A stretch of 64,000 bases of DNA from Alphaproteobacteria bacterium (GCA_965242575.1 OZ251461.1:1505430-1569429), one strand, 5' to 3'; shown: positions 1 through 41,189, numbered from the stretch's first letter. Notes: a model not told the origin generated them from the sequence alone. Program-made: numbers and translations.

Positions 1-2109
1 CGCGGCTGGCGGTGTGGATCCACACCTTCGCGCCGGGCCTGCCGCTGTCGTTCCTGGACCGCAACCTCGTCCGCGGCAACGCGCTGGTGGGGGTCGGCGG
101 GCTGGACGAGATCCGCCGGAAGTTCGACGCAGCGGCGGGCACGTTTTTCGCGGCGGACGCGGAGACCCTGCTGGGCGCGGCGAAGAAGCCGCTGCGGCGG
201 CTGGCCAACATCGCCGACCGGACGGTGGCGGACATCGCCGCCGCGCGCGCGGCGGAGCGGGAGGCGCGGGCGGCGCTCGCCGACACCGAGGCGCTGTGCG
301 ACCTGGTCGCGGCGCAGCCGCTTTGCGACGACGAGCGGGTGGCCGGCTTCGCGTTCGAGGACTGGGCGCGCCGCGCCGGGTCCGCGGAGACGCGGGCGGC
401 CGCCGAGATCGCGAAGCGGGCGCTTGCGGGGCTGCACGCGCTGCACTTTCCGATCGCGTTCCCGGAAGTGTTCCTGCGCGAACGGCCGGGCTTCGATGTC
501 ATCGTCGGCAATCCGCCGTGGCAGGAGGCGACGGTCGAGGAGCATGCCTTTTGGGCGCGGCATTTCCCCGGACTGCGCGGTCAGACACAGCGCGCGCAGG
601 AGTCCGAGAAAGCCCGGTTGCGCGAAGGGCGCCCCGATCTGGTCGCCGCATGGCGGGCGGAGCGGGAAGAGATGGAACGGGTGAGAAAGGCGCTGATCGG
701 CGGCGCGTATCCCAGCATGGGAACGGGCGATCCCGATCTCTACAAGGCCTTTTGCTGGCGGTTTTGGCGTTTGAGCGCGGCGGAGGGCGGGCGCATCGGC
801 GTGGTGCTGCCGCGCAGTGCCCTCGCCGCCAAGGGATCGGCCGAATTCCGCCGGACGATTTTCGAATGCGCGGCGCAAGTCGACGTCACAGTCCTCAGAA
901 ATCGCAAGGGATGGGTTTTTGACGATGTGACGCCGCTGTACACCGTCGGCCTCGTCTGCGTCGCACGCGGCGAGGCGTCCGCGCGTTCGATCCGTTTGCG
1001 CGGACCCTACGCTTCGGAAGCGGCGTTTCGCGAGGGCGCGAACGCGCCGGCGGCGGCCTTCGACCGCGCCGATGTGCTAAAATGGAACGACACCGCCTCG
1101 CTGCCTTTACTGCCCAACGCGGATTCGATCGGGGTTTTCGCGCAGCTCCGCAAGGCGCCCCGCCTTGATGAGAACATAAAATCGCGGGGGGGGGGGGGGC
1201 GAAACAAGAACATTGGCGTGCGCGCCCCGACCGCGAGATGGACGCCACGTTACAGAAAGCGTTCATGGTTTTCGATCCATCGGAAACCGGTGGCGCACCC
1301 GGCCGGACACGGAACTCCACGCCACGGCGCAGAAACCACTCATGACGTTCGCGGGCAAAGACCGCGCCGACGGATACTGGCCCATTTACAAGGGCGAATC
1401 CTTCGACATATGGAACCCCGACACGGGAATCTATTACGCATGGGCCGATCCAGAACCGGTTCTCGACTGGCTTCAGCGCAAACGTCTGAAATCTGGCCAG
1501 AGCCGCCGCGACAGCCCGCATCGGGAGTTTCCCTTGAAATATTTGCGTAACCGCAACACGTTGCCATGCTTTGCGCCGCGAATCGCCTTTCGGGATATTA
1601 CTAACCGAACTAATCAGCGCACGGTCATTGCTTGTCTTGTGCCGCCGAAAGTGTTTATCGCAAATCAGGCTCCTTACCTGCTCTGGCCACGTGGTGACGC
1701 AAAAGATCAGGCATTTCTACTCGGAATCTTGTGTTCGATTCCGCTCGATTGGTATGCGAGGCGTTTCGTCGAAACGCACGTCAACTATTTCGTCTTCAAC
1801 CCGTTCCCGATCCCGCGCCCCGACCGCGAGGACGCGCGGTGGCGGCGCGTCGTGGAGCTCGCCGGGCGGCTGGCTTGCCCGGACGACCGCTTCGCGGGTT
1901 GGGCCGAGGCCGCCGGCGTCGGGTGCGGGCCATTGGCGGCGGGCGAGAAGGACGACATGATACACGAACTCGACGCCGTCGCCGCCCGCCTCTACGGTCT
2001 CGACGAACGGCAGCTCGTCCACATATTCGAGACTTTTCACGAAGGCTGGGATTTCGCCGCGCGGCTGGACGGCGTGCGCCGGCACTTCCGGCGTTGGGGG
2101 TCGCGATGA
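1..2109 (+). pseudogene. N6-adenine DNA methyltransferase, Eco57I/type IIG-like; 5'-partial at window edge; frame broken at a G14 tract (frameshifted or phase-variable)
   Basis: The frame of ORF 12..1550 is open back to nt 3 and carries ...LHFPIAFPEVF...GFDVIVGNPPWQ (motif IV NPPW). Sensible sequence ends at the G run 1186-1199. The conserved C-terminal part (WRTRPDTELHAT...WPIYKGESFDIWNPD...FNPFPIP) continues in the next frame as ORF 1213..2109. Confidence 0.8.
1186..1199. repeat. Homopolymeric G14 tract inside the methyltransferase coding region
   Basis: Counted directly: atcgc + 14 g + cgaaac. The upstream and downstream halves of the gene are in different frames across it. Confidence 0.95.
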
Positions 2110-3266
2110 GCGTTCGGGTCGACGTCAAACCGGAGTTGCTGCGCTGGGCGCGCGAGCGCGCGGGCGCGGACGTCGACGCGCTGGTCCGCAAATTCCCCAG
2201 ATACCGCGAATGGGAGGACGGCGAGGTTCGGCCGACCTACAGGCAGCTGGAGAATTTCGCCAAAACCGTTCACGCGGGGGTGGGGTACTTGTTCCTGTCG
2301 GAGCCGCCCGACGAGCCGTTCCCCATCCCGGACTTCCGCACCATGGGCGGCGGGCCCGTCGGGCGCCCGAGTCTGAACCTGCGGCATACGATCTATCTCT
2401 GCCAGGGGCGCCAGGACTGGTACCGGGAATATGCGCAAGCGGAGGACGAAGGCCCTCTCCCGTTCGTCGGTTCGGCGCGCCTGTCGGACGATGTCGAGGC
2501 GGCCGCCGCGCAGATGCGCCGCGCGCTTAAATTCGACCCGGACGAACGCCGCGAGATGCGGACGTGGGAGGAGGCGCTGCGCCGGTTCGTCGAGTCGGCG
2601 GAGGAGGCTGGCGTGCTGGCGATGGTGTCGGGCGTCGTCGGCAACAACACCCGCCGCAAGCTCGATCCGGAGGAATTCCGAGGTTTCGCGCTGGTCGACG
2701 ACTTCGCCCCCCTGGTGTTCGTCAACGGCGCCGACACCAAGGCCGCACAGATGTTCACGCTGGCGCACGAACTCGCGCATCTGTGGCTCGGCGAGACCGG
2801 CCTGTCCGACAGCAGCCTGGATGCGCTGCCCCGTCGGAAGGTCGAAAACTGGTGTAGTCGGGTCGCGGCGGAGCTACTCGCGCCGATCGAGATCGTGCGG
2901 GCGGAGTATCGGCCGGGCGAGGACTTGTCCGCCGAGTCGAGTCGGTTGGCGCGACGATTCAAGGTGAGCACCTTGGTAATCCTGCGCCGGATTTACGATA
3001 TCGAAGGCCTGCCGTATGATCGGTTCCGGCGGGCTTACGACGACGAGCTCGAACGTCTGCGCGCAATCCCGGGACGCGGCGGCGGGAATTTTTACGCGAC
3101 CCAGACCGCGCGCGTGGGCAAGCGGTTCGCGCATGCCGTGATCGCCGACACGCTTGGAGGGGGGACGACGTTTCGCGAGGCGTTCCAGCTGTTCGGGTTC
3201 TCCAAGACGGAGACTTTCAAGAAGTTGGCCGATAATTTGGGAGTAAGGCATGGCTTACCTGATTGA
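2106..3266 (+). CDS. ImmA/IrrE-family Zn metallopeptidase with N-terminal HTH-like region (COG2856 type)
   Basis: ATG 2106 overlaps the upstream stop (ATGA). HEXXH motif is HELAHLWLGE. The start was trimmed from ORF 1731..3266 to MSVRVDVKPELLRWARERAG. Confidence 0.85.
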   Translation: MSVRVDVKPELLRWARERAGADVDALVRKFPRYREWEDGEVRPTYRQLENFAKTVHAGVGYLFLSEPPDEPFPIPDFRTMGGGPVGRPSLNLRHTIYLCQGRQDWYREYAQAEDEGPLPFVGSARLSDDVEAAAAQMRRALKFDPDERREMRTWEEALRRFVESAEEAGVLAMVSGVVGNNTRRKLDPEEFRGFALVDDFAPLVFVNGADTKAAQMFTLAHELAHLWLGETGLSDSSLDALPRRKVENWCSRVAAELLAPIEIVRAEYRPGEDLSAESSRLARRFKVSTLVILRRIYDIEGLPYDRFRRAYDDELERLRAIPGRGGGNFYATQTARVGKRFAHAVIADTLGGGTTFREAFQLFGFSKTETFKKLADNLGVRHGLPD

Positions 3267-3756
3267 CGCGAACGTATTCATAGACGCGAAGAATCGATAC
3301 TATGGGTTCGATTTCTGCTCGGCGTTCTGGGATTGGGCGATCGCAGCCAACCGACGGGGGCTACTGCTCAGCATCGCCGAGGTTGGCGGGGAACTCCGGG
3401 CCGGTAACGACTCGCTCGCGGCATGGGCGGCGGCGCGGGACGCCGGTTTCTTCGCCGAGTCGTTAACCGAACGGAGCGCCTCCGCGGTTAAGGTCAGCAA
3501 CCAGGCGAACGCAATGAATTACAACGTCGTCGCCATAGAGGAATTCATGAAATCCGCCGATTTTCATCTGATTGCCTACGCGGACAAATACAGACACACG
3601 ATCGTCACCCTCGAAGCCGCTTCGCCCACGGGGGCGCGCGCGAAAAGGCGTGTCCTGATACCCGACATGTGCGCCGTGCTCGGTATCGCGTGCGTAACCC
3701 CCTTCGAAATGCTGCGCCGCGAGAACGCGCGTTTCGTGCTCGGCGCCGCGCCGTGA
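3250..3756 (+). CDS. DUF4411-family PIN-like protein (putative nuclease partner of ImmA)
   Basis: N-terminus MAYLIDANVFIDAKNRYYGFDFCSAFWDW is typical of DUF4411. It overlaps the ImmA gene by 17 nt. Confidence 0.75.
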   Translation: MAYLIDANVFIDAKNRYYGFDFCSAFWDWAIAANRRGLLLSIAEVGGELRAGNDSLAAWAAARDAGFFAESLTERSASAVKVSNQANAMNYNVVAIEEFMKSADFHLIAYADKYRHTIVTLEAASPTGARAKRRVLIPDMCAVLGIACVTPFEMLRRENARFVLGAAP

Positions 3757-26911: not shown

Positions 26912-27618
26912 AGGTGACGTTGATGACCGCGCGCGGCGGGGCGGCGGAGCCCGTCGTCTTCGACTACGCGCCGCGCGAGGAGGGCGAGCGGCCGATGGCG
27001 CTCGACGTGCTGTTGCAGGCCCGGGCCGGGCCGCTGCCCGACCTCGCGTTCCGCTACGGCTGCCGCAACCGGACCTGCGGAGTGTGCACGGTGGACGTCA
27101 ACGGGCGCCCGCGCATCGCCTGCCGGGCGCGGGTGCGCGAGGGCGACGTCATCGCCGCGCCGGGGACGCTGCCGGCGCTGCGCGACCTGGTCCCGCGCCG
27201 CGACGGGGTGGCGCGGCAGTTGCGCGGGCGCGCCCCCGGCGCGGCGCGCGGCAACGACCTCGACGTCGCGGCGCCGGACGACTACCACGCGCTGACGGCG
27301 TGCATCGAATGCTACGCCTGCCTGCACGGCTGCCCCATGCATGCGCGCAACTTCGCCGGCGGCGCGGAGTCGCGCGCCCCCGACGGCGCCTATCGCTGGG
27401 GCAACCCGTTCTCGCTGTTGAAGCTGCGGCGCATCCAGCTGGACCCGGCGGCGGCGGCGGACGACAAGGCGCGCGCGGCGGAGGCCGCCTCCGACCTCGG
27501 CCTCGACGCCTGCCGCGACTGCCCCGGCTGCAAGTGCGGCGTGGGCATAGACCTCAAGCGCAAGGTGGTCCGCCCGCTGCTGGAGGCGGCGGACTCCGGC
27601 CCTACCAGTCGTTCCTGA
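26908..27618 (+). CDS. Fe-S subunit (2Fe-2S plus 4Fe-4S ferredoxin-like) partner of the flavoprotein
   Basis: ATGA overlap with the upstream gene. Cysteine clusters CRNRTCGVCTV, CIECYACLHGCP and CRDCPGCKCG. Confidence 0.75.
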   Translation: MKVTLMTARGGAAEPVVFDYAPREEGERPMALDVLLQARAGPLPDLAFRYGCRNRTCGVCTVDVNGRPRIACRARVREGDVIAAPGTLPALRDLVPRRDGVARQLRGRAPGAARGNDLDVAAPDDYHALTACIECYACLHGCPMHARNFAGGAESRAPDGAYRWGNPFSLLKLRRIQLDPAAAADDKARAAEAASDLGLDACRDCPGCKCGVGIDLKRKVVRPLLEAADSGPTSRS

Positions 27619-28393
27619 GCGCGCGGAGCTTGAGGAAGACCTCGCGCGGGGCGGGGTCGTCGGGCAGGTCGGGGAAAGTCTGGCGCAGGCGGGCCACGAC
27701 GCCGGGGCTGTGCAGGCGGAAGAAGGCGTTGACCTCCTTCTCCAGCGCCAGGGTGGTGACCTTGGCGGCGTGCGGGTCCTGGCCCTCGATCTCGCCGCGG
27801 AGCGCCCGCGCGCGGGCGTTGCCGGGTTCGCGGTCGAGGGTGAAGTCCAGGTTGTTGGCGATGTAGTCGTGCCCCGGATAGACCAGCGTCCCGCCGGGCA
27901 GGCGGGCGAGCTGGGCGGCGAAGGTCTCGTAGAGCTCCTCCGGATGGCCGCCGTTGTGGCAGTTGCCGGCGCCGGCGTTGAACAGCGTGTCGCCGCAGAA
28001 CAGCGCCGGCGCGTCGGTCCGCGACAGCAGGCAGACGTGGCTCATGGTGTGGCCGGGGGTGTCGAGCGCCTCGAGCTCCACCGTCCGCCCGACCTTCACC
28101 ACGTCGCCGGCGGCGAGGCCCACGTCGATCCCGGGAATGCGCCCCTTCGCGCCGGCGTGGGCGAGGAGCTTCGCGCCGGTGGCGGCGATGGTGGCTTCGT
28201 TGCCGCCGGTGTGGTCGCCGTGCTCATGGGTGTTGAGGACCTGGGTTATGTCCCATCCCTCGGCCCGGGCGGCGGCGAGGCAGCGGCGGTGGTCGAGCGG
28301 GTCGACCGCCAGCGCCTCCCCGGTCTCCGGGCAAGCGATGAGGTAGTTGAAGTTGCGGTAGGCGTTCTCGGTGTAGAGCTGCTTGACGATCAT
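27602..28393 (-). CDS. gloB: Hydroxyacylglutathione hydrolase (MBL fold)
   Basis: MIVKQLYTENAYRNFNYLIACPETGEALAVDP...THEHGDHTGGN...TPGHTMSHVC. Confidence 0.85.
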   Translation of the reverse strand: MIVKQLYTENAYRNFNYLIACPETGEALAVDPLDHRRCLAAARAEGWDITQVLNTHEHGDHTGGNEATIAATGAKLLAHAGAKGRIPGIDVGLAAGDVVKVGRTVELEALDTPGHTMSHVCLLSRTDAPALFCGDTLFNAGAGNCHNGGHPEELYETFAAQLARLPGGTLVYPGHDYIANNLDFTLDREPGNARARALRGEIEGQDPHAAKVTTLALEKEVNAFFRLHSPGVVARLRQTFPDLPDDPAPREVFLKLRALRNDW

Positions 28394-28989
28394 CGCCGAT
28401 CCTCTTGTGGTGTCGGGTCTGGTTCCGTTTGGGCGCACTTTTGCAAAAATTCCTTCAGCGCGTCCAGATCGGGCGCCTCCAGATTCCAATGTCGGCGGTC
28501 ACTGTAATTCCTGTCCTTCTCTTTTGGGCCATTACCTACCGCTTCGCAATAAGAGAAAATCCGCGCCTTGGAATCCGGCATATTGTAATTTTGACAAATA
28601 TTCCGCAAGCACTTCTGATACTCAGTAAAACAATCATGTATGCGCCTATGTCGTTCCGTGGCTATTTTCTCCAAAAGAGTTTCCAAATTTCCAGAACGCT
28701 TGTTATCCGGAAAAAGAAACCAGTAATTGACAGGGAGATTGAGTCGCGCCTTCTCCACTTCGATTTCATCTAGCCGACCGGAGATATCCGCATCCGCGTC
28801 TAATATGATCGCTATGCGCTTTCCAGCATCATAGCTCCTCTGGATCCGGCGTTGCGCCGCCGACAATTTCGATATCCCGCCCCCGATGACTTCCGACTGG
28901 AAGATCGACAAGCCGATACGATCCAGAAAGGCGTCGAGAAACAATTTATCGTTATCTCCTTCGACGAATATGACACAGGTCACAGTCAT
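28390..28989 (-). CDS. Small TOPRIM-like protein (DUF4276/DUF3226/DUF4435-type fold), AT-rich cassette gene 2
   Basis: VIFVEGDNDKLFL (TOPRIM Glu) and AIILDADAD (DxD). 199 aa. The stop lies inside the ATGA that starts gloB. The start overlaps the ATPase stop by 1 nt. Confidence 0.7.
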   Translation of the reverse strand: MTVTCVIFVEGDNDKLFLDAFLDRIGLSIFQSEVIGGGISKLSAAQRRIQRSYDAGKRIAIILDADADISGRLDEIEVEKARLNLPVNYWFLFPDNKRSGNLETLLEKIATERHRRIHDCFTEYQKCLRNICQNYNMPDSKARIFSYCEAVGNGPKEKDRNYSDRRHWNLEAPDLDALKEFLQKCAQTEPDPTPQEDRR

Positions 28990-30167
28990 TATCGAATCTC
29001 TATATCGTGTTCGATGTTATGAGCGAATTGCTCGTAATCGTACCGGTAAGAACGCACATTTCCTTCCTGATCTCGCGCAAGAACGAAACACTTCGTTGCA
29101 GATCGAATGGCTGCGAACTCCTCCCCTTTCAAAATGTTCCTCAAGCACTCAAGAGCATCCATGCTATGCGTAGTAACAAAAATTTGCACTCCTCTCGCGA
29201 CAGACAGGGTCAGAATTGCCTCCAAAAGCGTTCGCATTCCCGTGTAATGAATTCCGTCCTCGATTTGGTCAATCAAAACCATTCTAGATTTATCCAGAAT
29301 GCATTGTGACACGATGCTGGCCGCGCGAATTATGCCGCTCCCGAATAGGTTGATGGGCAACATCTTCTTCAGCCCGATATCCAGGAATATCTTATCTCCC
29401 GGCGCGGCTATATCTTGGACTTGCCCATCTATGTTCTTAAGAATCTCGACCAGATCGTATCTCTTTTTATTGACTATCAATTCCGAGAGAGAATCGACAT
29501 CATAGTCAAATCCAGACACAAAAAACCGGGACAGGATGAGGTTTCGCTGTGCGAATTCAGACAAAGCCTGCGGAGAGGGATGCGCAACGTATCCCACACT
29601 CCTATCTTCGTGTGGGAAAAAATGACACGTAACCGACGAAGGATCTTTCGCCGACTCGCTTTTCAATTCGGCGTCGTACCGAAAAACACGGGGCCGATTA
29701 ACTTCCGACGATGACAAGGAAGTGTCAGGCATAGCCCCTTTGTTGTCAGTGGTTTTGCGATTCAGATCCTGTTGGTTCATAATTTCGGACAAGTCCTCCG
29801 TCGACGCGCTAATGGACAACTTCCGCCGCTCCCCCCGGGCAGGAACGGTAGCCGCCAACTCGCTGCGTTCGTCGATGTTCAGATTGTGAAGCATGTTGAA
29901 CAAGTCGTCCTGTGTAAGAACGATGTAACGCCTCATATTCTGGGTTCTGATAACCAGTTCTTGGTTTCCTATGCCGGCGAGGAGGTGGATCGCCTCCATA
30001 ACCGTCGTCTTTCCGGTATCGTTGGCGCCCAAAATAACGTTGAATGCCCCAAGCCCATCCAGTTCGATGCTCCGAAGCCCACGGAAATGGCGGATGGAAA
30101 CCGCTTCGAAGTGATGATCATTTGGCACGGACGGCATCTCGTCGCGCGTTTCCGGCGATGCGATCAT
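28989..30167 (-). CDS. ABC/SMC-like AAA_21-type ATPase, AT-rich cassette gene 1
   Basis: Walker A ILGANDTGKTT, signature-like LFGSGIIRA, Walker B MVLIDQIEDGIH, H-loop VTTHS. ATG 30167 sits in an ATGA with the caiB stop. An alternative internal start is MPSVPN at 30137. Confidence 0.8.
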   Translation of the reverse strand: MIASPETRDEMPSVPNDHHFEAVSIRHFRGLRSIELDGLGAFNVILGANDTGKTTVMEAIHLLAGIGNQELVIRTQNMRRYIVLTQDDLFNMLHNLNIDERSELAATVPARGERRKLSISASTEDLSEIMNQQDLNRKTTDNKGAMPDTSLSSSEVNRPRVFRYDAELKSESAKDPSSVTCHFFPHEDRSVGYVAHPSPQALSEFAQRNLILSRFFVSGFDYDVDSLSELIVNKKRYDLVEILKNIDGQVQDIAAPGDKIFLDIGLKKMLPINLFGSGIIRAASIVSQCILDKSRMVLIDQIEDGIHYTGMRTLLEAILTLSVARGVQIFVTTHSMDALECLRNILKGEEFAAIRSATKCFVLARDQEGNVRSYRYDYEQFAHNIEHDIEIR

Positions 30168-31354
30168 GATCCGGTCCCCAGTGTGCCGCGCGCCTCGAAC
30201 CCGGCGATATCGTCGCCACCGTAGCCCAGTTCGCGGAGGATGTCAAAATTATCCGCGCCGAGGAAGGGGGCCATGGCGCGGACCTCGGCGGGGGTGCGGT
30301 CGAAGCGCGCGGCCGGGCGCGGTTGGCGCACCGGGCCCAGCGCCGGGTCGTCGTGGATCTCGAGGGTCCCGTTCGCCGCGACCTGCGCGTCGTCGAGCAG
30401 TTCGCGGCGCGTGAGCACGGGGGCGGAGGGAACCTGCTCGGCGTCGAGGCGGGCGAGGATCTCCGCCGCCGGCCATTTGGCGATCTCCTCGCCCGTTATG
30501 GCGCGGCGGGCGGCGACGTTGGCGAAGCGCAGCGCCGGGGTCGCGAAGCGCGGGTCGTCCAGCAGGTCCTCGCGCCGGAGCGCCCGGCACATGCCGGCCC
30601 ATTCGGCGTCGGTGACCGCGCCGGCGGTGATGTGGCCGTCCTTCGCCCGGAAGACCAGGTCCAGCCCCATCTGCCCGCGCGCCGGGTCCGCCTCCCGCCC
30701 CACCCAGGAGAGCGCCGACATGCCTTCGGGCCACAGATAGGCGATCGTCGCGTCCAGCATCGACAGGCGCACGTGCTGGCCTTCGCCGGTGCGCTCGCGC
30801 GCCAGCAGCGCGGCGACGATCGCCTGCGCCGCCGCGAGCGCCGTCGTTTTGTCGGGGACGATGGTGCGGACCATGCGCGGCTCGCCGGTGGCGCGGTCGG
30901 ACTGGATGTCGGCGAGGCCCGACAGCGCCTGGATCACCGGGTCGTACACCCGCTTGTGGGCGTAGGGGCCGGTCTCGCCGAAGCCGCTGATCGAGACGAA
31001 CACGATGTCGGGGCGGACGGCGCGCACCGCCTCCTCGCCCAGGCCCATGCGGTCGATGGCGCCGGGGCGGTAGTTCTGCACCAGCACGTCGGCCGTGGCG
31101 GCGAGCTTGCGGACGACGGCGACTCCCTCCGCCGATTTGAGGTCGACGGCGAGCGACCGCTTGCCCCGGTTGCAGCACAGGAACGACGAGGTCATGCCGC
31201 GGTTCTCGACGCCGACGCGGCGCATGAGCTCGCCGCCGGGCGGCTCGATCTTGATCACGTCCGCGCCCTGGTCGGCGAGCATCATCGCGGCGACCGGCCC
31301 CGACACCATCGTCGTCAGGTCGAGGACGCGGAAGCCGTCCAGCGGGCCGGGCAT
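30164..31354 (-). CDS. CaiB/BaiF family III CoA-transferase
   Basis: MPGPLDGFRVLDLTTMVSGPVAAMMLADQGADVIKIEPPGG...RGKRS...VLVQNYRPG. Confidence 0.85.
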   Translation of the reverse strand: MPGPLDGFRVLDLTTMVSGPVAAMMLADQGADVIKIEPPGGELMRRVGVENRGMTSSFLCCNRGKRSLAVDLKSAEGVAVVRKLAATADVLVQNYRPGAIDRMGLGEEAVRAVRPDIVFVSISGFGETGPYAHKRVYDPVIQALSGLADIQSDRATGEPRMVRTIVPDKTTALAAAQAIVAALLARERTGEGQHVRLSMLDATIAYLWPEGMSALSWVGREADPARGQMGLDLVFRAKDGHITAGAVTDAEWAGMCRALRREDLLDDPRFATPALRFANVAARRAITGEEIAKWPAAEILARLDAEQVPSAPVLTRRELLDDAQVAANGTLEIHDDPALGPVRQPRPAARFDRTPAEVRAMAPFLGADNFDILRELGYGGDDIAGFEARGTLGTGS

Positions 31355-32013
31355 CACGCCCCTCCGACATGCGGGAATTCGCGGCCGGGGTAGTTGAAGC
31401 GCATGGCTTCGCGGTAGGCGGGACGTTCGGCGATGCGGGCGCGCCAGGAGTCCGTCTCCGGCGGCAGGGGGATGCCGTACATGTCCGCCCAGTCGAGGCA
31501 GGTGGCGAGGAGGATGTCGGCGGGGCCGAACGCGCCCATCAGCCACGGCGCGGCGCGGGCCACGCGCGGCGCCATGGCGCGCGCCTGCTGGAGGAAGTAT
31601 TCCCGGGCCGACTCCACCGCGCCCGGCGCCGCGCCGTAGATGTGCTTGAGGCCGTCGTGGCGGCGGATGAGGTAGAGGCTGTGGGCGTCGAGTTCGGTCA
31701 TGACGAACCAGCACCATTCCGCGAGCCGGGCGCGCTCGCCGGCGTCGGCGGGGCGGAGGAAGCCGTCGGGAAGCGGGAAGCGCTCCGCCAGGTAGAACAC
31801 GATGGCCGCGCTTTCGGTGAGGACGAGTTCGCCGTGGCGCAGCGTCGGGATTTTGCCGCGCGGGTTGAGCGCGAGATACTCCGCCGTCTGCGTCTCGCCG
31901 GTGCGCGAGCCGATGGGGTGCGTGGTGTATGCGAGGCCGAGTTCGCGCAGCATCCAGTGCACGCGCATGGTGCGCGTGCTGGAGATTCCCCAGACCTCGA
32001 CCGGCTCCGGCAT
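31354..32013 (-). CDS. Glutathione S-transferase
   Basis: YLALNPRGKIPTLRHGELVLTESAAIVFYLAE (GST N-terminal domain). Confidence 0.85.
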   Translation of the reverse strand: MPEPVEVWGISSTRTMRVHWMLRELGLAYTTHPIGSRTGETQTAEYLALNPRGKIPTLRHGELVLTESAAIVFYLAERFPLPDGFLRPADAGERARLAEWCWFVMTELDAHSLYLIRRHDGLKHIYGAAPGAVESAREYFLQQARAMAPRVARAAPWLMGAFGPADILLATCLDWADMYGIPLPPETDSWRARIAERPAYREAMRFNYPGREFPHVGGA

Positions 32014-32061: not shown

Positions 32062-33747
32062 TCACCGGCCCGCGGCGATCAGCTCCTCGCTGAGCGGGTT
32101 CGCCCGCCGCGCCACCAGCAGCTCGAGATGCACCGTGGCGCGGGTCATGCCGCAATAGAGCCGTCTTCGCCAATCCTCCATCCGTCCGGGATCGGGGTCG
32201 ACGTCGCACAGGATCACCGCCGGCGCCTGCTGTCCCTTGAAACGGTGGATGCTGTCGAAGAGTATCTGTCCATTCGACATCTTCTGGTTGCCGGATCGAT
32301 CGTAACCTTGGAATCGGCTGAGGGTGTAGCCGCCAAGAGGCCGCGACGAACCGCCGACGGCCGAGCGTCCGACACCGCGCATCGTGAGCAGGGTTATGTC
32401 CTCGGGGCGGAATCCAAGCCTTCGCAACTCGGTGACGCGCGCCGCCGCCAGTTTCACCTGGTCCGCGGGATCGTCGTAAGGCCAGACTTTCACGTCGAAG
32501 CCGGCGACGGGGCTGGCGCACTCGAACTCGAACGACGGAAGTACCGTTCTTATGAAGCGCGCAATGGCCTCCGGCGAGCGATAGTTGCGCCGCGCGCGCA
32601 AGCCGACGACACCGGCCCTGTCGCGCGGCTCGGTTTGTCGGATGTTCTGATCGGAATCTTCCAACCAAAGAAAATCATGGTCGTCTTTTAGGAAAAGATC
32701 GAGCACCTCAAACCATTCTGGCTTGAAATCCTGCGCTTCATCTATGATCAATCTATCGAACCTCCAGCTTTCGGGCACTCCGTCCTCGATCGCCCGCTCC
32801 TTCACGCGATCCTCCACTTCCGACCAGAACGTATCCTGATTCTGGAGATGATCGCGCACCCGGTCGAAATCCAGAGTGTCGCCGCGATCCTCCAGGAAGC
32901 TGACGCAGAACCCGTACCAGGTCTGAACCAGACCGTCGTCGGGGACTCTTTCATTCAAATTCTCGCGTAACGACCGGTTAAAGCAGAGCATAAGCGAACG
33001 CTTGCCGGACTCCGCCGCGCGCGTATAAAAGTGGGTTGCGATCTCGGTTTTACCGCAACCGGCAACACCCTTCACACGCAACCGCAGGGGCGACATCTCG
33101 ATGTCGCCGATTCTATCGACGAGCTCCGCGCTCAACCTGGCGAAAGATCGATCCTGCTCGTCCTTACAGGCATGCACGTCGGGAACGACTTCGAATGTCT
33201 GGCGGAAGAAGCGGTGCACGGCCTCGGCGAAGTCGTCGTCCGCTCCGGTTCCCGCTCCCCATGTGTCGGCGACGATACGGGCGAGATCGCGGCGGCGCGT
33301 TTTGTCGACTATCCGTTCCGCGTCGAGGCCGGCCGCGTTCAGTCTGGCTATGCGGTAATCCGGACAGTAAAGCAGATAATCGACAGACAGTCCGCGTCGT
33401 CCAGCGGCGGCCTGCCGGAATTTCCCGCGGATGGAGTCCAGGTTGCGATGAATTTGGGTCGAAACGGATTTCACCTTGTCTGGATAATTTTTCTTGAGAC
33501 CGTCCGCCGTTTCGACGAGGGGTCCGTTTTTCTGCTCAATGACGACGATTCGTCCATCGCGGTTGACCACAACGAAATCGATTTCCCCGAACGTCGTGCG
33601 ATCCGCTTTCGCGCGGGTCCAGTGAACGCCGTGATAGATCGTGAATTCGGGACCCAGACCGGCCTCGAGATGCTCCAGCGTGGCCATTTCGCCGCCATGT
33701 GCGCTGGAACGCGCGAACCTGATCACTCCAGGAATTGCGTAGGCCAT
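32062..33747 (-). CDS. NERD nuclease-related domain fused to SF1 (UvrD/AAA_30-like) helicase
   Basis: NERD core is GEIDFVVVNRDGRIVVIEQKNG. Walker A GVAGCGKT, Walker B LIIDEAQDF, C-terminal IHRFKGQQAPAVIL...MTRA. Visibly lower GC than the neighbouring genes. Confidence 0.8.
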   Translation of the reverse strand: MAYAIPGVIRFARSSAHGGEMATLEHLEAGLGPEFTIYHGVHWTRAKADRTTFGEIDFVVVNRDGRIVVIEQKNGPLVETADGLKKNYPDKVKSVSTQIHRNLDSIRGKFRQAAAGRRGLSVDYLLYCPDYRIARLNAAGLDAERIVDKTRRRDLARIVADTWGAGTGADDDFAEAVHRFFRQTFEVVPDVHACKDEQDRSFARLSAELVDRIGDIEMSPLRLRVKGVAGCGKTEIATHFYTRAAESGKRSLMLCFNRSLRENLNERVPDDGLVQTWYGFCVSFLEDRGDTLDFDRVRDHLQNQDTFWSEVEDRVKERAIEDGVPESWRFDRLIIDEAQDFKPEWFEVLDLFLKDDHDFLWLEDSDQNIRQTEPRDRAGVVGLRARRNYRSPEAIARFIRTVLPSFEFECASPVAGFDVKVWPYDDPADQVKLAAARVTELRRLGFRPEDITLLTMRGVGRSAVGGSSRPLGGYTLSRFQGYDRSGNQKMSNGQILFDSIHRFKGQQAPAVILCDVDPDPGRMEDWRRRLYCGMTRATVHLELLVARRANPLSEELIAAGR

Positions 33748-37036: not shown

Positions 37037-37797
37037 ATGTCCGACCGCAACTTCTGGCTGTCCGAGGCCCAGTTCGCGCGGCTCCGTCCGCTGTTGCCCA
37101 ACAAGGTGCGCGGCGTGCCGCGTGTCGATGATCGCCGTGTCATCTCGGGCATCGTCCACGTCCTTCGCAACGGCCTTATGTGGCGCGACGCGCCATCCGC
37201 ATACGGCCCGCACAAGACCCTCTACAACCGCTTCGTGCGCTGGAGCGCGGCGGGCGTCTTCAATCGTATTTTCGAGGCTCTGGCCGCCGAGAGCCGGGAG
37301 ACGGGGACGGTGATGATCGACGCAACCCACCTGAAGGCGCACCGGACCGCAGCCAGTCTGCTAAAAAAGGGGCTCTTTCGCGCTGTATCGGACGCACCCG
37401 AGGCGGCCTCAACTCCAAATTGCACGCGGTCTGCGACGGCGCCGGCAAGCCGCTGGTCATGCTGCTGACCGAGGGACAGGTCAGCGACTATCGCGGCGCG
37501 GCGACGGTGCTCGACGCACTGCCGGACGCGGATGTCCTGATCGCCGACCGGGGTTACGACAGCGACCGCTTCCGCGAAGCTTTGACCGCGCGGGGTATCG
37601 CGCCCTGCATTCCGGGCCGCGCAAACCGCAAGACGCCGGTCGTTTACGACAAGGCGCTCTACAAACGGCGCAACCTCGTCGAACGCATGTTCGGCAGACT
37701 CAAGGATTGGCGCCGCATCGCCACACGCTACGACCGATGCGCCCATACCTTCTTCAGCGCCATCTGCATCGCCGCAACCTTAATTTTCTGGTTATGA
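37037..37797 (+). CDS. IS5-family transposase produced by programmed -1 frameshift (orfA 37037-37369 joined to orfB up to 37797)
   Basis: orfA is MSDRNFWLSEAQFARLRPLLPNKVRGVPRVDDRRVISGIVHVLRNGLMWRD. orfB is ...LNSKLHAVCDGAGKPL...IADRGYDSD...YKRRNLVERMFGRLKDWRRIATRYD. Confidence 0.85.
37363..37369 (+). promoter_or_regulatory. A_AAA_AAG -1 ribosomal frameshift heptamer
   Basis: cta aaa aag in the orfA frame. Slipping by -1 yields KKGALSRCIGRTRGG, which is the orfB reading. Confidence 0.75.
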
Positions 37798-37809
37798 GTC
37801 CTGAGCCTA

Positions 37810-38454
37810 GTGGATAAGGGCGGCCACACGATTCTTGAAGTTGACGCGCGTTGGGCGGCGAACGCCATGCCGACACTTGTCGCGGAGGTGGACGCCGTAA
37901 TCACCTCGCCGCCCTACGCTACCGCGCTTCCCTACATAGATACCGACCGGTTGAGTCTCATATATCTCGGATTGCTGGCGCGCGGAGATCACCGGGCGCG
38001 CGATATGCTGATGATCGGCAACCGCGAGATTACGAATCGGATGCGGTTAAATTACTGGGAATTCTACAAAGAAAATAAGTCCGTGCTTCCTGAGAAGACA
38101 TGCGCCATGATCGATCTTATAGATTCGCTCAACAAGGCGAGCTCGGTAGGGTTTCGGCGTCGGAACATGTCGGCACTTTTGTCGAAGTATTTCTTTGATA
38201 TGCGAAAGGTCATGACGCAGGTGGCGATCTTCTTGAAGCCCGGAGGATCGATGTTTCTCGTCGTCGGGAACAACCGGACGGAGGCTGGAGGTCAGCCGAT
38301 CGAAATCAGGACGGCGGAGCATCTTATGGAAATTGCCGAGAGTCTCGGTTTTCGGGCGGTGGACGATATGGCGATGGATATGCTGAGCTCTCGTGATATC
38401 TTCAGGAAAAATGCCGTTCCCTCGGAGCGGATCATACAGGTGGAGAAGATCTAA
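37810..38454 (+). pseudogene. Incomplete N4/N6 DNA methyltransferase (motif IV SPPY present, no AdoMet motif I)
   Basis: VDAVITSPPYATALPY and FLKPGGSMFLVVGN are present. No FxGxG or DPFxGSG motif occurs anywhere in the 214 aa. The open frame runs back into the IS5 terminus. The region is AT-rich. Confidence 0.6.
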
Positions 38455-39074
38455 TAGTACCCAAATTTCTTCTCGGAGTTGCGGACGGAATTGATGCATA
38501 TGGCAAGATATACCGGGTGTTGACTCGTCCCTTGCGGAATCACCTCCGCATAGTATTCGTAACCGGCCCCCGGAATCGCCTTCTCCATGCGAAGAATATC
38601 TCCGATATTTCCCGCGCTTCGTAATGTCTCACTCCGCAATCGGAAATCGTGTTTGTCAGGCCAGGTCATCATGTTTATGTGAACGATCTCTCCGCCTAGT
38701 CGCATAGGGATGCCGCGCCGGTCGTATTTTCCGGGTTTCCGGGGATCGAGTACGAACCTCTCGGGCCAGCCCCAGAAACTCGGGTTGGCGTCGCGAGCGG
38801 CGAGGGGTATGAAGATTTCGGGTGATCGGCGCGATGTTCCGGACGTTGTTTGGCCGACACCGACATCGGTGCGTTGAAGCGTCATCGCGAATCCGACGCC
38901 GCCGGAGGCTGCGGACGATACGGCAGCGGATGTCGACACCGAAAGCGCGCCGTCGCGCCCGGGTAGGGCAGGCGCTCGGGGCGGTTGCGTGGCTGAAAAT
39001 AGAGGATCGGTAAGCGCTGGGCGATCTTCTTCACGGCCGCTATCCGCTTTCTGAACTCCGGGAGAGATAAGCAC
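38451..39074 (-). CDS. Possible restriction-endonuclease remnant with a B3/EcoRII-N/BfiI-C-like DNA-binding domain
   Basis: The C-terminal 130 aa or so (EIFIPLAARDANPSFWGWPERF...VHINMMTWPDKHDFRLRSE...) resemble the pseudobarrel DNA-binding domain. The N-terminal 70 aa are low complexity and no catalytic domain was seen. It converges on the MTase with a 4-nt overlap. Confidence 0.35.
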   Translation of the reverse strand: MLISPGVQKADSGREEDRPALTDPLFSATQPPRAPALPGRDGALSVSTSAAVSSAASGGVGFAMTLQRTDVGVGQTTSGTSRRSPEIFIPLAARDANPSFWGWPERFVLDPRKPGKYDRRGIPMRLGGEIVHINMMTWPDKHDFRLRSETLRSAGNIGDILRMEKAIPGAGYEYYAEVIPQGTSQHPVYLAICINSVRNSEKKFGYY

Positions 39075-39284
39075 CTCCGGCGGGACAAGGCCCGTCGCCG
39101 TTAAGAGGCCGTTTTAGAATATACTATTGAAATTATTCGATTTCTGATCGGTATGGCTGCATGCTTCACACACATGCCAATGGACTCCCGCAATCTTGGG
39201 AGTTACGATCCGTTTGCCGACGCGGATACCGTGCAGACAGGATGCGGGGACAATACACTGAAAGTAATCGATTCATTCTGAAAC

Positions 39285-39916
39285 GGCCTCGTAGAGGCTC
39301 CGGGCGTCGTGCGCGCTGGCGGCGAGCGAGGCGATGACGAAGCGCGGGTTGGCCTTGCCGTGGGGCCATTCCGCCTTGCCGACGACGCGGCGCTCGCGGC
39401 TCCGACTGTCGCGCGTGGACCGCACGAAGTCCGCGAAGCGCCGCGCCGGCGCGGCGCTTCGCGCGCTGTCCGCTTGGCCTCCGCCAACACATCCGCAATC
39501 GCCGACCCGTCATGGACGATCTTGCCGTCCCCGGACGGAGACGAACCGCCCAACTCCAACCGGCTCGGCGTCGACTTCCCCGCAACCGGGGCGCAGTTCC
39601 GGCGCTTCGCGCGCAACTTCCCCGCCAACACCGCCATCACCGGACCGCCGCGCAACACGTCGTGGTTGATCGAATCCTCGTAGCCCAGCGCAATCCCCAA
39701 CACACGCCGACCCACAAGCGTCCGAACCGAGTGCTCCACGAACCGGCCATCGCGATGATCCGCGAAGCAAGCCGCAAGCCCAACCGCCGCGTCCGCCTGT
39801 CCGAGCAGCAGAGCGCCGGCGTCCGAAGTCATCGACCCGCCGTCGAAATCCGCCACAACCGCCCGCCCCGAAACCGCTTGAAAGTCACCAGGCGCCGCGC
39901 TACACTCCATTCGCAT
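39285..39916 (-). pseudogene. IS1380-family transposase remnant (frameshifted, internally deleted, 3'-truncated)
   Basis: The N-terminus ...VVADFDGGSMTSDAGALLLGQ...GRFVEHSVRTLVGRRVLGIALGYEDSINHD is IS1380-like. A later segment FADFVRSTRDSRSRERRVVGKAEWPHGKANPRFVIASL...SLYEAV sits in another frame, and similarity ends near 39290. Confidence 0.7.
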
Positions 39917-40010
39917 CGGGGAACCCCCTGCCCTGATATAAGTCCTTGTCCAAGAACACTATATCACAGGCAGGACCCCGGTGCACTCAAAACTATGAGA
40001 AATTCGAGCT

Positions 40011-41189
40011 AGTGTCCTGCGTCTGAAGTTAGTATCATAACGGGCAGTGATCGCCGATTCGGGGAGGGTAAGCGATGGGGCGTTGTGTCGGTCGGCCCGT
40101 GGCGGCCGTGGTGTTGAGCGCCGCAGAGCGGTCGTTCCTTGAGCGTCAGGTTCGCCGTCGCCGGGTGGCGCGGGGGATGTCGGATCGCTGCCGCATCGTC
40201 CTGCGCTGCGCCGATGGCTTGACGAGCAAGGCGGTGGCGGCGGAACTCGGCGTGCACGAACACACCGTCGGCAAGTGGCGTCGTCGTTTTCTGCAGGATC
40301 GTGTCGAGGGCCTGTCGGACGCGCCGCGTTCGGGGCGCCCGCGGAGCATAGAAGATGCGCGGGTGGCCGAGGTCGTCAAGCGGACGCTCGAGACGTCGCC
40401 CCCCGACGCGACGCATTGGTCGATCCGCTCGATGGCCCGGGAGGCGGGGCTTTCGCACACGACGGTGCGGCGGATCTGGAAGGCGTTCGGGCTGCAACCG
40501 CACCGGTCGGAGGCGTTCAAGCTTTCCAGCGATCCGCTGTTCGTGGATAAGGTGCGGGACATCGTGGGGCTCTATCTGTCGCCGCCGGACCGCGCGCTGG
40601 TGCTCTGCGTCGATGAGAAGAGCCAGGGACAAGCCCTTGACCGCGAGCAGCCGGTCTTGCCGACGATGCCGGGCATGCCCGAACGGCGGACGCACAACTA
40701 TGTCCGGCACGGGACGACGTCGCTGTTCGCCGCGCTCGACGCCGCAACGGGCTTCGTCATCGGCAAGTGCTATAGACGCCACCGGGCGCGGGAGTTCCTC
40801 GATTTCCTCAAGGAGATCGACGCTCGTGTTCCCGAAGACCTGGACGTTCATATCGTCATGGACAACTACACGACCCACAAGACCGCTTCGGTCAAGGCAT
40901 GGCTGGCGCGACGGCCACGCTATCACGCTCACTTCACGCCGACCTCGGCCTCGTGGATCAATCAGGTGGAGCGCTGGTTCGCCGAACTGACGCGCAAGCA
41001 GCTTCAACGGGGCGTGCACACCTCCACGAAACAGCTCGAGGCGGATATCCGCGCCTTCATCGACCGGCACAACCAGAATCCCAAGCCCTTCAAATGGACC
41101 AAAACCGCCGACGATATCCTCGCACCCGTCAAACGCTTCTGTCACCGCGTCGACCGCACATTATGCAGCGAACTTTAGACTCAGGACAC
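40011..41189 (+). mobile_element. IS630-family insertion sequence, apparently intact
   Basis: 20-bp terminal inverted repeats (40011-40030 GTGTCCTGCGTCTGAAGTTA versus the reverse complement of 41170-41189) agree at 18 of the first 19 positions; position 20 also differs. TA dinucleotides flank both ends (40009-40010 and 41190-41191). Confidence 0.9.
40075..41178 (+). CDS. IS630-family DDE transposase
   Basis: HTH region ...[23 protein letters not shown]... and DDE region LCVDEKSQ...[11 protein letters not shown]...[19 protein letters not shown]. Confidence 0.9.

Follow-up and report, generated by a model that had tools for sequence, protein, structure and literature searches.

A stretch of 64,000 nucleotides (nt) from the genome of an alphaproteobacterium (GCA_965242575.1, OZ251461.1:1505430-1569429), referred to here as the window, carries on its minus strand two overlapping genes, one for an ATP-binding cassette (ABC)-type ATPase and one for a small TOPRIM-like protein of the DUF3226 family. 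We consider it reasonably probable that this pair is a two-gene module of the AbiL/PDC-M38 branch of the OLD/Gabija/PARIS superfamily, acting in the manner of abortive-infection or toxin-antitoxin (TA) systems and held as old, divergent alleles in a fixed slot. As a type the system is ordinary: it belongs to an already catalogued, uncharacterised family of probable anti-phage modules, and is neither a minimal version of these nor a new class. What is new is an allelic series embedded in an operon at a fixed slot, a group of alleles in which the catalytic Glu of Walker B is replaced by Gln, and the overlap of the pair with both of its neighbours, where no promoter of its own was found.

The upstream gene of the pair (28989..30167, minus strand) encodes an AbiLi- and PDC-M38A-like ATPase of 392 amino acids (aa), identified by its open reading frame (ORF), Pfam and PADLOC profile matches, an AlphaFold2 (AF2) model and a Foldseek search with that model. 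The downstream gene (28390..28989, minus strand) encodes the DUF3226 protein, 199 aa long, for which ORF, Pfam, PADLOC and AF2 model were likewise available. Base 28989 is common to the TAA stop codon of the ATPase gene and the ATG of the DUF3226 gene, giving an overlap of 1 nt. A first-pass annotation of the window had already placed two minus-strand genes at these positions with this overlap, and had seen in them the architecture of an ATPase plus a separate TOPRIM protein, as in AbiL and PARIS; both points stand. That annotation also took the pair to be a compact and possibly novel member of its class, and here the outcome is different.

The ATPase matches Pfam AAA_21 (3.7e-19, 70.3 bits against a gathering cutoff of 27) and AAA_15 (5.6e-15, 56.3 bits against a cutoff of 32.1). 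Its best PADLOC match is the AbiLi model PDLC02336 (1.5e-55), which aligns residues 22-392 with profile positions 4-340 of 340, and the PDC-M38A model covers it almost as fully (5.2e-43, profile positions 3-365 of 367). A second AbiLi model, PDLC02335, matches only in part (2.5e-12), and the PADLOC models for AriA, GajA, HEC-01/02A, NsnB and mad3 are far weaker on this protein than AbiLi and PDC-M38A. The AbiL and PDC-M38 assignments are matches to individual PADLOC models. Existing defence-annotation models thus already recognise the ATPase, and the notion of a novel class is not supported.

The AF2 model of the ATPase has a pLDDT score (predicted local distance difference test) of 86.5, and a Foldseek search of the PDB with it returned 197 matches at E<=1e-3. 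The leading matches (E 1e-11 to 1e-9) are PtuA, ATPases of retron Eco8 and type I-A, SMC and Rad50 heads, Thermus OLD and GajA. Judged by its motifs and its predicted structure, the product of this gene is an ABC/SMC-type ATPase with a Rad50/SMC-like head fold. In the model a beta-rich insert (strands at residues 102-122 and 161-196, with a disordered loop at 137-156) occupies the place where Rad50, SMC and AriA have a coiled-coil.

The motifs of the ABC fold that the first-pass annotation had quoted are all present, and they are well conserved. Walker A, or the P-loop, is GANDTGKT (residues 47-54; 30006..30029), and 114 of 116 homologues have a GxxxxGK[ST] sequence. The ABC signature-like motif is LFGSGIIRA (residues 274-282; 29322..29348), with G276 invariant and G278 nearly so; Walker B and the D-loop lie in VLIDQIEDGIH (residues 297-307; 29247..29279), and the H-loop in TTHS (residues 332-335; 29163..29174), all on the minus strand. 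An alignment of 108 ATPase homologues shows no exception at G47, G52, T54, D300, G305, H307 or H334, and at least 90% of the sequences keep K53. The claim that all ABC/SMC motifs are intact nevertheless holds only in part, because the catalytic Glu of Walker B is Gln301 in the window, a point taken up below. The extreme C terminus of the ATPase, ...IEIR (28989-29003), is also almost invariant in the same alignment, with Arg392 in every homologue and Glu390 in at least 90%; this tail might serve to dock the partner protein, or might be constrained by the overlapping start of the next gene.

The small protein matches Pfam DUF3226 (PF11536; 3.3e-16, 60.1 bits against a cutoff of 27) over residues 6-185, aligned with profile positions 3-206 of 208. 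All 93 relatives aligned with it match DUF3226 when scanned singly, and some match other profiles as well: 38 match OLD-like_TOPRIM (E<=0.01, best 5.9e-7), six DUF4435, five Toprim, three OLD-like_TOPRIM_1 and one DUF4276. Among PADLOC models the best match of the window protein is PDC-M38B, through two weakly matching models (1.7e-7 and 6.9e-7) that jointly cover residues 4-183. AbiLii PDLC02338 is also a weak match (6.4e-6, 24.6 bits; residues 48-184 aligned with positions 20-122 of a 125-position profile), as are mad4 (2e-4) and AriB (1.2e-3, over residues 6-71 only). A match to NAD_binding_8 (23.9 bits, just over its cutoff) was rejected, since it falls on a GGG-containing loop and recurs in only 2 of the 93 relatives. 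Two homologues carry the label "ribonuclease M5" in the JGI data.

The catalytic signature of TOPRIM proteins reportedly consists, following Aravind, Leipe and Koonin (1998), of a Glu after strand 1 and a DxD at strand 3. In the AF2 model of the small protein (pLDDT 95), strands and helices follow the order b-a-b-a-b-a-b around a four-stranded parallel sheet, and the acidic residues fall at the corresponding places. Glu10, in VIFVEGDND (residues 6-14), directly follows beta-1 (residues 5-9; codon 28960..28962, minus strand) and is invariant among the 93 relatives; Asp64-Ala65-Asp66, in ILDADAD (residues 62-68), stands at the end of beta-3 (residues 58-64; 28792..28800, minus strand), with D64 invariant and D66 conserved in at least 90%. 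These are the two motifs on which the first-pass annotation had based its TOPRIM assignment. A third invariant acidic residue, Glu103 in GNLETLL (28681..28683, minus strand), begins helix 4 and may take part in metal binding. Invariant among the 93 relatives are E10, G11, D64, F91, P94, G100, E103, C120 and C127, with D14, D66 and K141 nearly so. Cys120 and Cys127 (28609-28632) lie on a long helix (residues 112-131), and both are absent from the version of the protein found on a Klebsiella plasmid, described below.

Searches by fold were less telling. Topoisomerase II TOPRIM domains appear at ranks 12-26 in the PDB, with weak E-values of about 0.04-0.06, and in BFVD the DnaG TOPRIM domain ranks second (prob 1.00, root mean square deviation 3.4 Å over 103 columns), also a weak match; twinkle, RloB-like and Toprim-like entries were listed in BFVD too. 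TOPRIM membership is accordingly well supported by motifs, predicted topology and family-level profile matches, and not by fold search. A sequence search of the PDB, with the single protein or with a profile of 93 sequences, gave only a non-significant match to 2p62 (PH0156; E 0.86) in the first strand motif. That entry has also been reported as the best HHpred match of a lactococcal AriB (PMC11381338), a coincidence that fits a distant kinship and is not evidence by itself.

The DUF3226 family is large. Searched with a profile, 1.84 billion cluster representatives yielded 2704 clusters at E<=1e-3, of which 267 reached E<=1e-30, the counts being of clusters at 50% identity. The best 150 of the matches listed are mostly 185-200 aa long, so a protein of 199 aa is within the family norm and has not been miniaturised. 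ATPase lengths across homologues are mostly 355-395 aa. The sizes of both window proteins are thus normal for their families and not, as had been proposed, minimal.

The two genes form a conserved unit. The ATPase gene is followed by the DUF3226 gene with an overlap of 1-4 nt in 11 of 11 independent loci, drawn from several bacterial lineages, and the divergence of the two genes among alleles runs together. Six loci with the pair belong to the clade of the window (L001, L004, L005, L088, L096 and the window itself). Elsewhere the surroundings are of other kinds: the pair adjoins Y2 transposase and type I restriction-modification genes in L090 and L091, and genes near it carry PSD-family domains (Pfam PSD2-PSD5, PSCyt3) in L093. 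The pair of L007 has an ATPase of 504 aa, and further ATPase plus DUF3226 pairs occur in L097, L098 and L099. L097 had been a candidate for a partnerless ATPase, which was rejected, the DUF3226 gene there being intact and merely uncalled.

Plasmids carry the pair as well. A tblastn search of 72,556 plasmids with the window ATPase matched 150 records, of which 139 are from Klebsiella; no Lactococcus plasmid was matched at E<=1e-5. One example is NZ_CP024435.1 (L095), a non-mobilizable ColRNAI plasmid of 4167 bp from Klebsiella pneumoniae, where the pair lies at 1984-3731 and the only other annotated genes are rop and one for a helix-turn-helix (HTH) protein. Its genes are annotated as an "ATP-binding protein" of 371 aa and a "DUF3226 domain-containing protein" of 210 aa, overlapping by 1 nt, and their PADLOC pattern is that of the window pair (AbiLi at 1.9e-58, plus PDC-M38A/B). 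The plasmid pair has a G + C content (GC) of 0.31-0.32, compared with 0.48 in the remaining plasmid sequence, and in every context checked the pair lies 7-20 points under its surroundings. A phage origin was considered and rejected: the small protein found no match in phages or PHROGs, and the ATPase gave partial, generic P-loop matches only.

Within the window the pair is set into an operon-like row of five genes in the order glutathione S-transferase (GST), CoA-transferase, ATPase, DUF3226 and gloB. The GST gene (31354-32013) overlaps the family III CoA-transferase gene (30164..31354, minus strand; an ORF, with Pfam CoA_transf_3 in syntenic loci) by 1 nt, and the CoA-transferase stop codon overlaps the ATPase ATG in the sequence ATGA. 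On the other side, the DUF3226 stop codon and the ATG of the gloB-like hydroxyacylglutathione hydrolase gene (27602..28393, minus strand; an ORF, with Pfam Lactamase_B and HAGH_C in syntenic loci) form a second ATGA overlap, peculiar to the window among the alleles. The last 8 codons of the DUF3226 gene here are a read-through extension (28390-28416) that ends on the gloB start codon. In the nearest allele, L001, the gene stops at 191 aa, 19 nt ahead of gloB (2900-2945 compared), and the other alleles likewise stop about 8 codons earlier than the window, leaving a spacer of some 20 nt that carries the gloB ribosome-binding site. In the window that spacer has become coding sequence. Neither the window DUF3226 protein nor the window gloB product has an exact database record in exact-protein look-ups.

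The pair seems to share a transcript with the CoA-transferase and gloB genes and to be coupled to them in translation. Promoter-like and terminator-like sites occur only inside the ATPase gene, and no terminator was found between the genes or 3' of the pair. An alternative start for the ATPase is Met11 (30137), and it may be the true one, because residues 1-12 are predicted to be disordered and most homologues begin about 8 residues before the first strand. On the other hand, the ATPase ATG overlaps or abuts the upstream stop codon in 6 of 6 syntenic alleles, which favours translational coupling from Met1.

The slot bounded by GST and CoA-transferase genes on one side and gloB on the other is occupied by the pair in six loci, and what occupies it differs between nearly identical genomes. 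Compared at the nucleotide level, the window and L088 are 93-100% identical to either side of the pair, and identity drops to 50-77% only from about 30234 to about 28458; together with alignments of the junctions this delimits a variable cassette at 28400..30230. The junctions fall within the final 30 nt or so of the CoA-transferase gene and about 20 nt ahead of the gloB ATG. For the same two genomes the flanking proteins are 95-98% identical, with 0.03-0.08 synonymous substitutions per site (dS), whereas the ATPases share 56% and the DUF3226 proteins 50% identity and the dS of the pair is about 2, that is, saturated. For L005 and L096 the flanking proteins are at 93-95.5%, the ATPases at 73% and the DUF3226 proteins at 61%. 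The window and L001 are closest, at 98% for the flanks (dS 0.04-0.11), 87.5% for the ATPase and 91% for the DUF3226 protein (pair dS 0.28-0.30).

Both genes of the pair show a ratio of nonsynonymous to synonymous substitution (dN/dS) of 0.16-0.23, from which it follows that both are functional and under purifying selection. Protein divergence is focused on residues 99-245 of the ATPase, where identity is 20-39%, compared with 50-70% for the core. With synonymous sites saturated, fast evolution in situ is not the explanation; rather, old alleles have been kept or exchanged as a cassette. Sliding windows over the two closest alleles found no segment with dN/dS > 1, the maximum being 0.88, where substitutions are very few. 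Lineages that share the slot differ by a flank dS of 0.5-0.8, which contradicts a simple, recent foreign insertion.

The composition of the pair is foreign to its surroundings, as had been noticed at the outset. Across the two genes GC is 0.46-0.52 (about 0.49, with the flanks at 0.71-0.76) against 0.68-0.82 around them, and GC at third codon positions (GC3) is 0.55-0.58 against 0.92-0.96 in the flanking genes. GC3 of all the slot alleles (L001, L004, L005, L088, L096 and the window) lies at 0.55-0.64, and that of their genomes at 0.87-0.97. No compositional amelioration is seen in the slot alleles despite their saturated synonymous divergence. One idea is that their persistent AT-richness reflects escape from GC-biased gene conversion, since alleles so diverged cannot recombine internally.

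A scan for empty sites with the gloB protein, among GTDB representatives and JGI metagenome contigs, gave 160 loci among the matches listed, with gloB at 70-81% identity (closer relatives may exist), and the pair was absent in 160 of 160. None of the same 160 loci has an orthologous CoA-transferase beside gloB, and the scan yielded no reconstruction of an ancestral junction. The sequence ATGATCG is common to both junctions in the window, but it is not kept in L088, L005 or L004, and no tRNA, integrase or target-site duplication was found at the pair.

An unexpected residue of the ATPase is Gln301 (CAA; 29265-29267, minus strand), which stands directly after the Walker-B Asp300 at the position of the usual catalytic Glu. 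Among the 111 homologues with a locatable motif, 106 have Glu at this position and 5 have Gln; the five are the window ATPase and its four nearest clusters, and Gln301 is accompanied by an Asn-to-Asp change three residues on. The carriers come from different samples and their mutual identity goes down to 55-60%, which argues that the Gln is real and old. From this residue the hydrolytic competence of the window ATPase is in doubt; its membership of the fold family is not. In Gabija it is reportedly nucleotide binding to the ATPase domain of GajA, not hydrolysis, that regulates the nuclease, and by analogy a nucleotide-binding switch in place of hydrolysis is conceivable here. In PARIS the engineered counterpart, AriA E393Q, does not hydrolyse ATP, is insensitive to Ocr and does not release AriB, and defence is lost (PMC10802264).

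A mechanism can be outlined by analogy with AbiL and PARIS. The ATPase would dimerise or oligomerise on ATP and would hold or gate the small TOPRIM nuclease in a complex, and the variable beta-rich insert of the ATPase (about residues 99-245) may be the surface that senses the infection cue. Once triggered, the TOPRIM protein, presumed to be Mg-dependent through Glu10, Asp64, Asp66 and Glu103, would cut tRNA or DNA, and this cleavage would halt growth of the cell or of the phage in an abortive-infection or TA-like manner. The pair would persist in its slot as very old, divergent alleles exchanged as a unit. A more adventurous version, which we regard as rather doubtful, adds that the Gln alleles are naturally deficient in hydrolysis yet working, and that the locus is under long-term balancing selection on an immune module. 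On that version ATP binding alone, or the loss of ATP, would gate the nuclease by a mechanism unlike that of PARIS, while ancient alleles would be swapped as cassettes and, having escaped recombination, would stay AT-rich in a genome of about 72% GC.

Several observations weigh against reading the pair as an abortive-infection module of this superfamily. It sits inside a housekeeping operon, with no promoter-like site upstream on its own strand, and neither mobility genes nor convincing terminal inverted or direct repeats were found at it. The OLD-like_TOPRIM profile reaches 2.7e-3 and 18.6 bits on the window protein over its whole 67 positions, below the cutoff of 23.2, and fold searches of the PDB and BFVD with the small protein gave nothing at E<=1e-3, with OLD and AriB not among the best 50. 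tblastn with the small protein found no match among 50,697 phage records, and PHROGs contains no family for it. In the searchable literature no demonstrated anti-phage activity was found for any DUF3226-type pair, and the candidate ATPase plus TOPRIM pair HEC-01 failed to protect E. coli from the phages tested (bioRxiv 10.1101/2024.01.29.577857). Lastly, given Gln301 and the effect of AriA E393Q, a strictly PARIS-like release driven by hydrolysis is unlikely here.

Other explanations of the pair have to be set against this. It could be a selfish addiction cassette, with the TOPRIM protein as toxin and the ATPase as antitoxin, whose loss kills the cell and which brings no net anti-phage benefit. 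On small non-mobilizable plasmids of Klebsiella the pair is the sole cargo, a setting in which post-segregational killing would pay; stop and start codons that overlap with those of essential-looking neighbours make a clean loss difficult; and PARIS behaves as a type II TA pair (PMC10802264). Even so, most of the TA-like ATPase/TOPRIM systems that have been studied are also defence systems, so that addiction would not exclude defence, and deep diversification at one locus, focused on the ATPase insert, more easily fits changing external targets. We take pure addiction to be unlikely. A disabled or repurposed relic, in which the Walker-B Gln locks the ATPase and leaves a permanently inhibited complex or one with some other role, would account for the confinement of Gln301 to the allele group of the window (5 of 111), and with the equivalent change AriA loses hydrolysis, its response to Ocr and defence (PMC10802264). 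A dead module should decay, however, and the Gln alleles, 55-60% identical, retain a dN/dS of 0.16-0.23 with their other catalytic residues intact. The regulation of GajA by nucleotide binding also implies that hydrolysis is not always needed, and the relic seems to us distinctly improbable.

The embedding of the pair in an operon, with translational coupling in 6 of 6 syntenic loci, and the "ribonuclease M5" labels on two homologues (JGI) could suggest a housekeeping factor for nucleic-acid processing or repair, RNase M5-like for example, that belongs to the GST/CoA-transferase/glyoxalase II operon. Yet these flanking genes accompany the pair in one clade only, the pair lying elsewhere in unrelated contexts such as plasmids and restriction-modification or transposase loci, and 0 of the 160 listed loci with gloB at 70-81% identity have it. 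For a housekeeping gene, moreover, 50% divergence between genomes with 97% identical flanks is unexpected, as is a composition 20 GC points off the genome, and we give this explanation very little weight. Hardly more credible is the view from which the work departed, that a compact, novel pair of the PARIS/AbiL class was acquired recently and stands as a lone foreign insertion. Low GC speaks for it, as do proteins smaller than AriA (464 aa) and AriB (35 kDa); but the same slot is filled in at least 6 loci with flank dS up to about 0.8, the sizes are typical of a family with thousands of members that existing PADLOC models match, and target-site duplication, terminal repeats, integrase and tRNA were all looked for at the pair and not found. 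No rival fits both the allele pattern and the conservation as well as an AbiL/PDC-M38-type module held as old alleles.

The first-pass annotation had also described the pair as sitting alone, which is true in part. It overlaps both of its neighbours, and a gene for a 561-aa NERD plus UvrD-like helicase (32062-33747, minus strand; GC about 0.60) lies directly beyond GST, some 2 kb away, matching the PADLOC models "NERD+UvrD" C3a187 (4.7e-19) and RTasNERD-Hel (1.6e-19). A second variable segment starts above 32034, just beyond GST, and its contents differ in the window, L088 and L005. In L088 it holds genes without Pfam matches, and in L005 (630-6191, upstream of GST) a 1123-aa SNF2-family helicase with NOV_C and a 490-aa ATPase with AAA_15/AAA_21 and DUF3696. 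This segment is probably another variable defence slot. Farther out, 8-11 kb from the pair, lies a cluster of insertion sequence (IS) transposase genes and fragments (37180-41178; DDE_Tnp_1, DDE_Tnp_1_4, and DDE_3 with HTH), in which GC drops to 0.55-0.66. IS genes there enclose the C-terminal 190 residues or so of a type II DNA methyltransferase (37810-38454; PADLOC MTase_II 1.1e-31).

The wider interest of the pair lies in its family. ATPase plus DUF3226 pairs make up some 2700 clusters at 50% identity, spread over several bacterial lineages and clinical Klebsiella plasmids, and defence tools flag them by similarity only, as AbiL or PDC-M38. Knowing what the pair does would give a common "DUF" a function and would bring a smaller partner nuclease into the PARIS/AbiL/OLD picture. 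Gln-type and Glu-type alleles in the same slot (the latter in L005 and L096) amount to a natural experiment on the need for hydrolysis, and deeply divergent alleles in near-identical genomes are well suited to mapping the specificity region of the ATPase. The allelic findings leave the basic, ordinary classification of the system unchanged.

Among known systems, several share one or the other feature of the pair. RloAB has the same split ATPase/TOPRIM architecture, as do HEC-01 and the mad3/mad4 genes of MADS; with the models for HEC-01A and mad3 the window ATPase reaches about 1e-11 to 1e-13, a much weaker match than those to AbiLi and PDC-M38, and MADS is a multi-gene methylation-associated system with nothing similar adjoining the pair. 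OLD of phage P2, GajA and the retron Eco8 effector have the same ABC ATPase fold (E 1e-11 to 6e-10 for retron Eco8, Thermus OLD and GajA) and TOPRIM catalytic motifs of the same type as the small protein. In these, however, both domains lie in one polypeptide, joined in some cases by a helicase or reverse transcriptase partner, whereas in the window the ATPase and the TOPRIM protein occupy two ORFs with no GajB-like gene adjacent, which sets the pair apart from the fused OLD/Gabija class. In a published tree of AAA_15/21 defence ATPases the partner domains are TOPRIM-Old, DUF4435, RloB and DUF4276, and DUF3226 is not listed (PMC11464382).

PARIS, too, is split into an ABC ATPase and a separate TOPRIM nuclease; AriA, as sensor and antitoxin, sequesters AriB and frees it on binding a trigger (PMC10802264, PMC11464382). 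The likeness goes little further. AriA gives a weak phmmer match to the window ATPase (6e-5, residues 32-162 only), and the best PADLOC AriA match comes from a generic model that spans what Pfam AAA_21 spans, both in residues and in profile length. AriA has a chain of 464 aa with a coiled-coil that builds the hexamer, whereas the model of the window ATPase has no long helix pair at that place; AriA requires its Walker-B Glu, and the window ATPase has Gln. AriB is a DUF4435 protein of about 35 kDa, the window protein a DUF3226 protein of about 22 kDa. The first-pass annotation was right that both proteins are shorter than the PARIS components. On the small protein DUF4435 reaches 13.9 bits, where 27 is the cutoff, and the AriB model extends over no more than its first 66 residues; with no DUF4435 effector and no AriA-type coiled-coil ATPase, the pair is not PARIS.

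The Klebsiella plasmid pair of NZ_CP024435.1 has an ATPase only about 25% identical to that of the window, is plasmid-borne instead of lying in a fixed chromosomal operon, and has extra insertions in a DUF3226 protein that lacks the two Cys and is likewise uncharacterised. PDC-M38, whose A and B components are both matched by the window pair, A over nearly the whole ATPase and B weakly and in two stretches, is a computational candidate only, and no paper mentioning DUF3226, PF11536 or PDC-M38 was found in the searchable literature. AbiL, by contrast, is a validated abortive-infection system of Lactococcus lactis, and it too consists of two adjacent genes, a Rad50/SMC-like ABC ATPase followed by a small TOPRIM/OLD-type protein (PMC13064643). 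When PARIS-i was superposed on AbiLi, 212 of 453 aa were aligned (PMC13064643), a figure which suggests that lactococcal AbiLi is larger than the 392 aa of the ATPase in the window.

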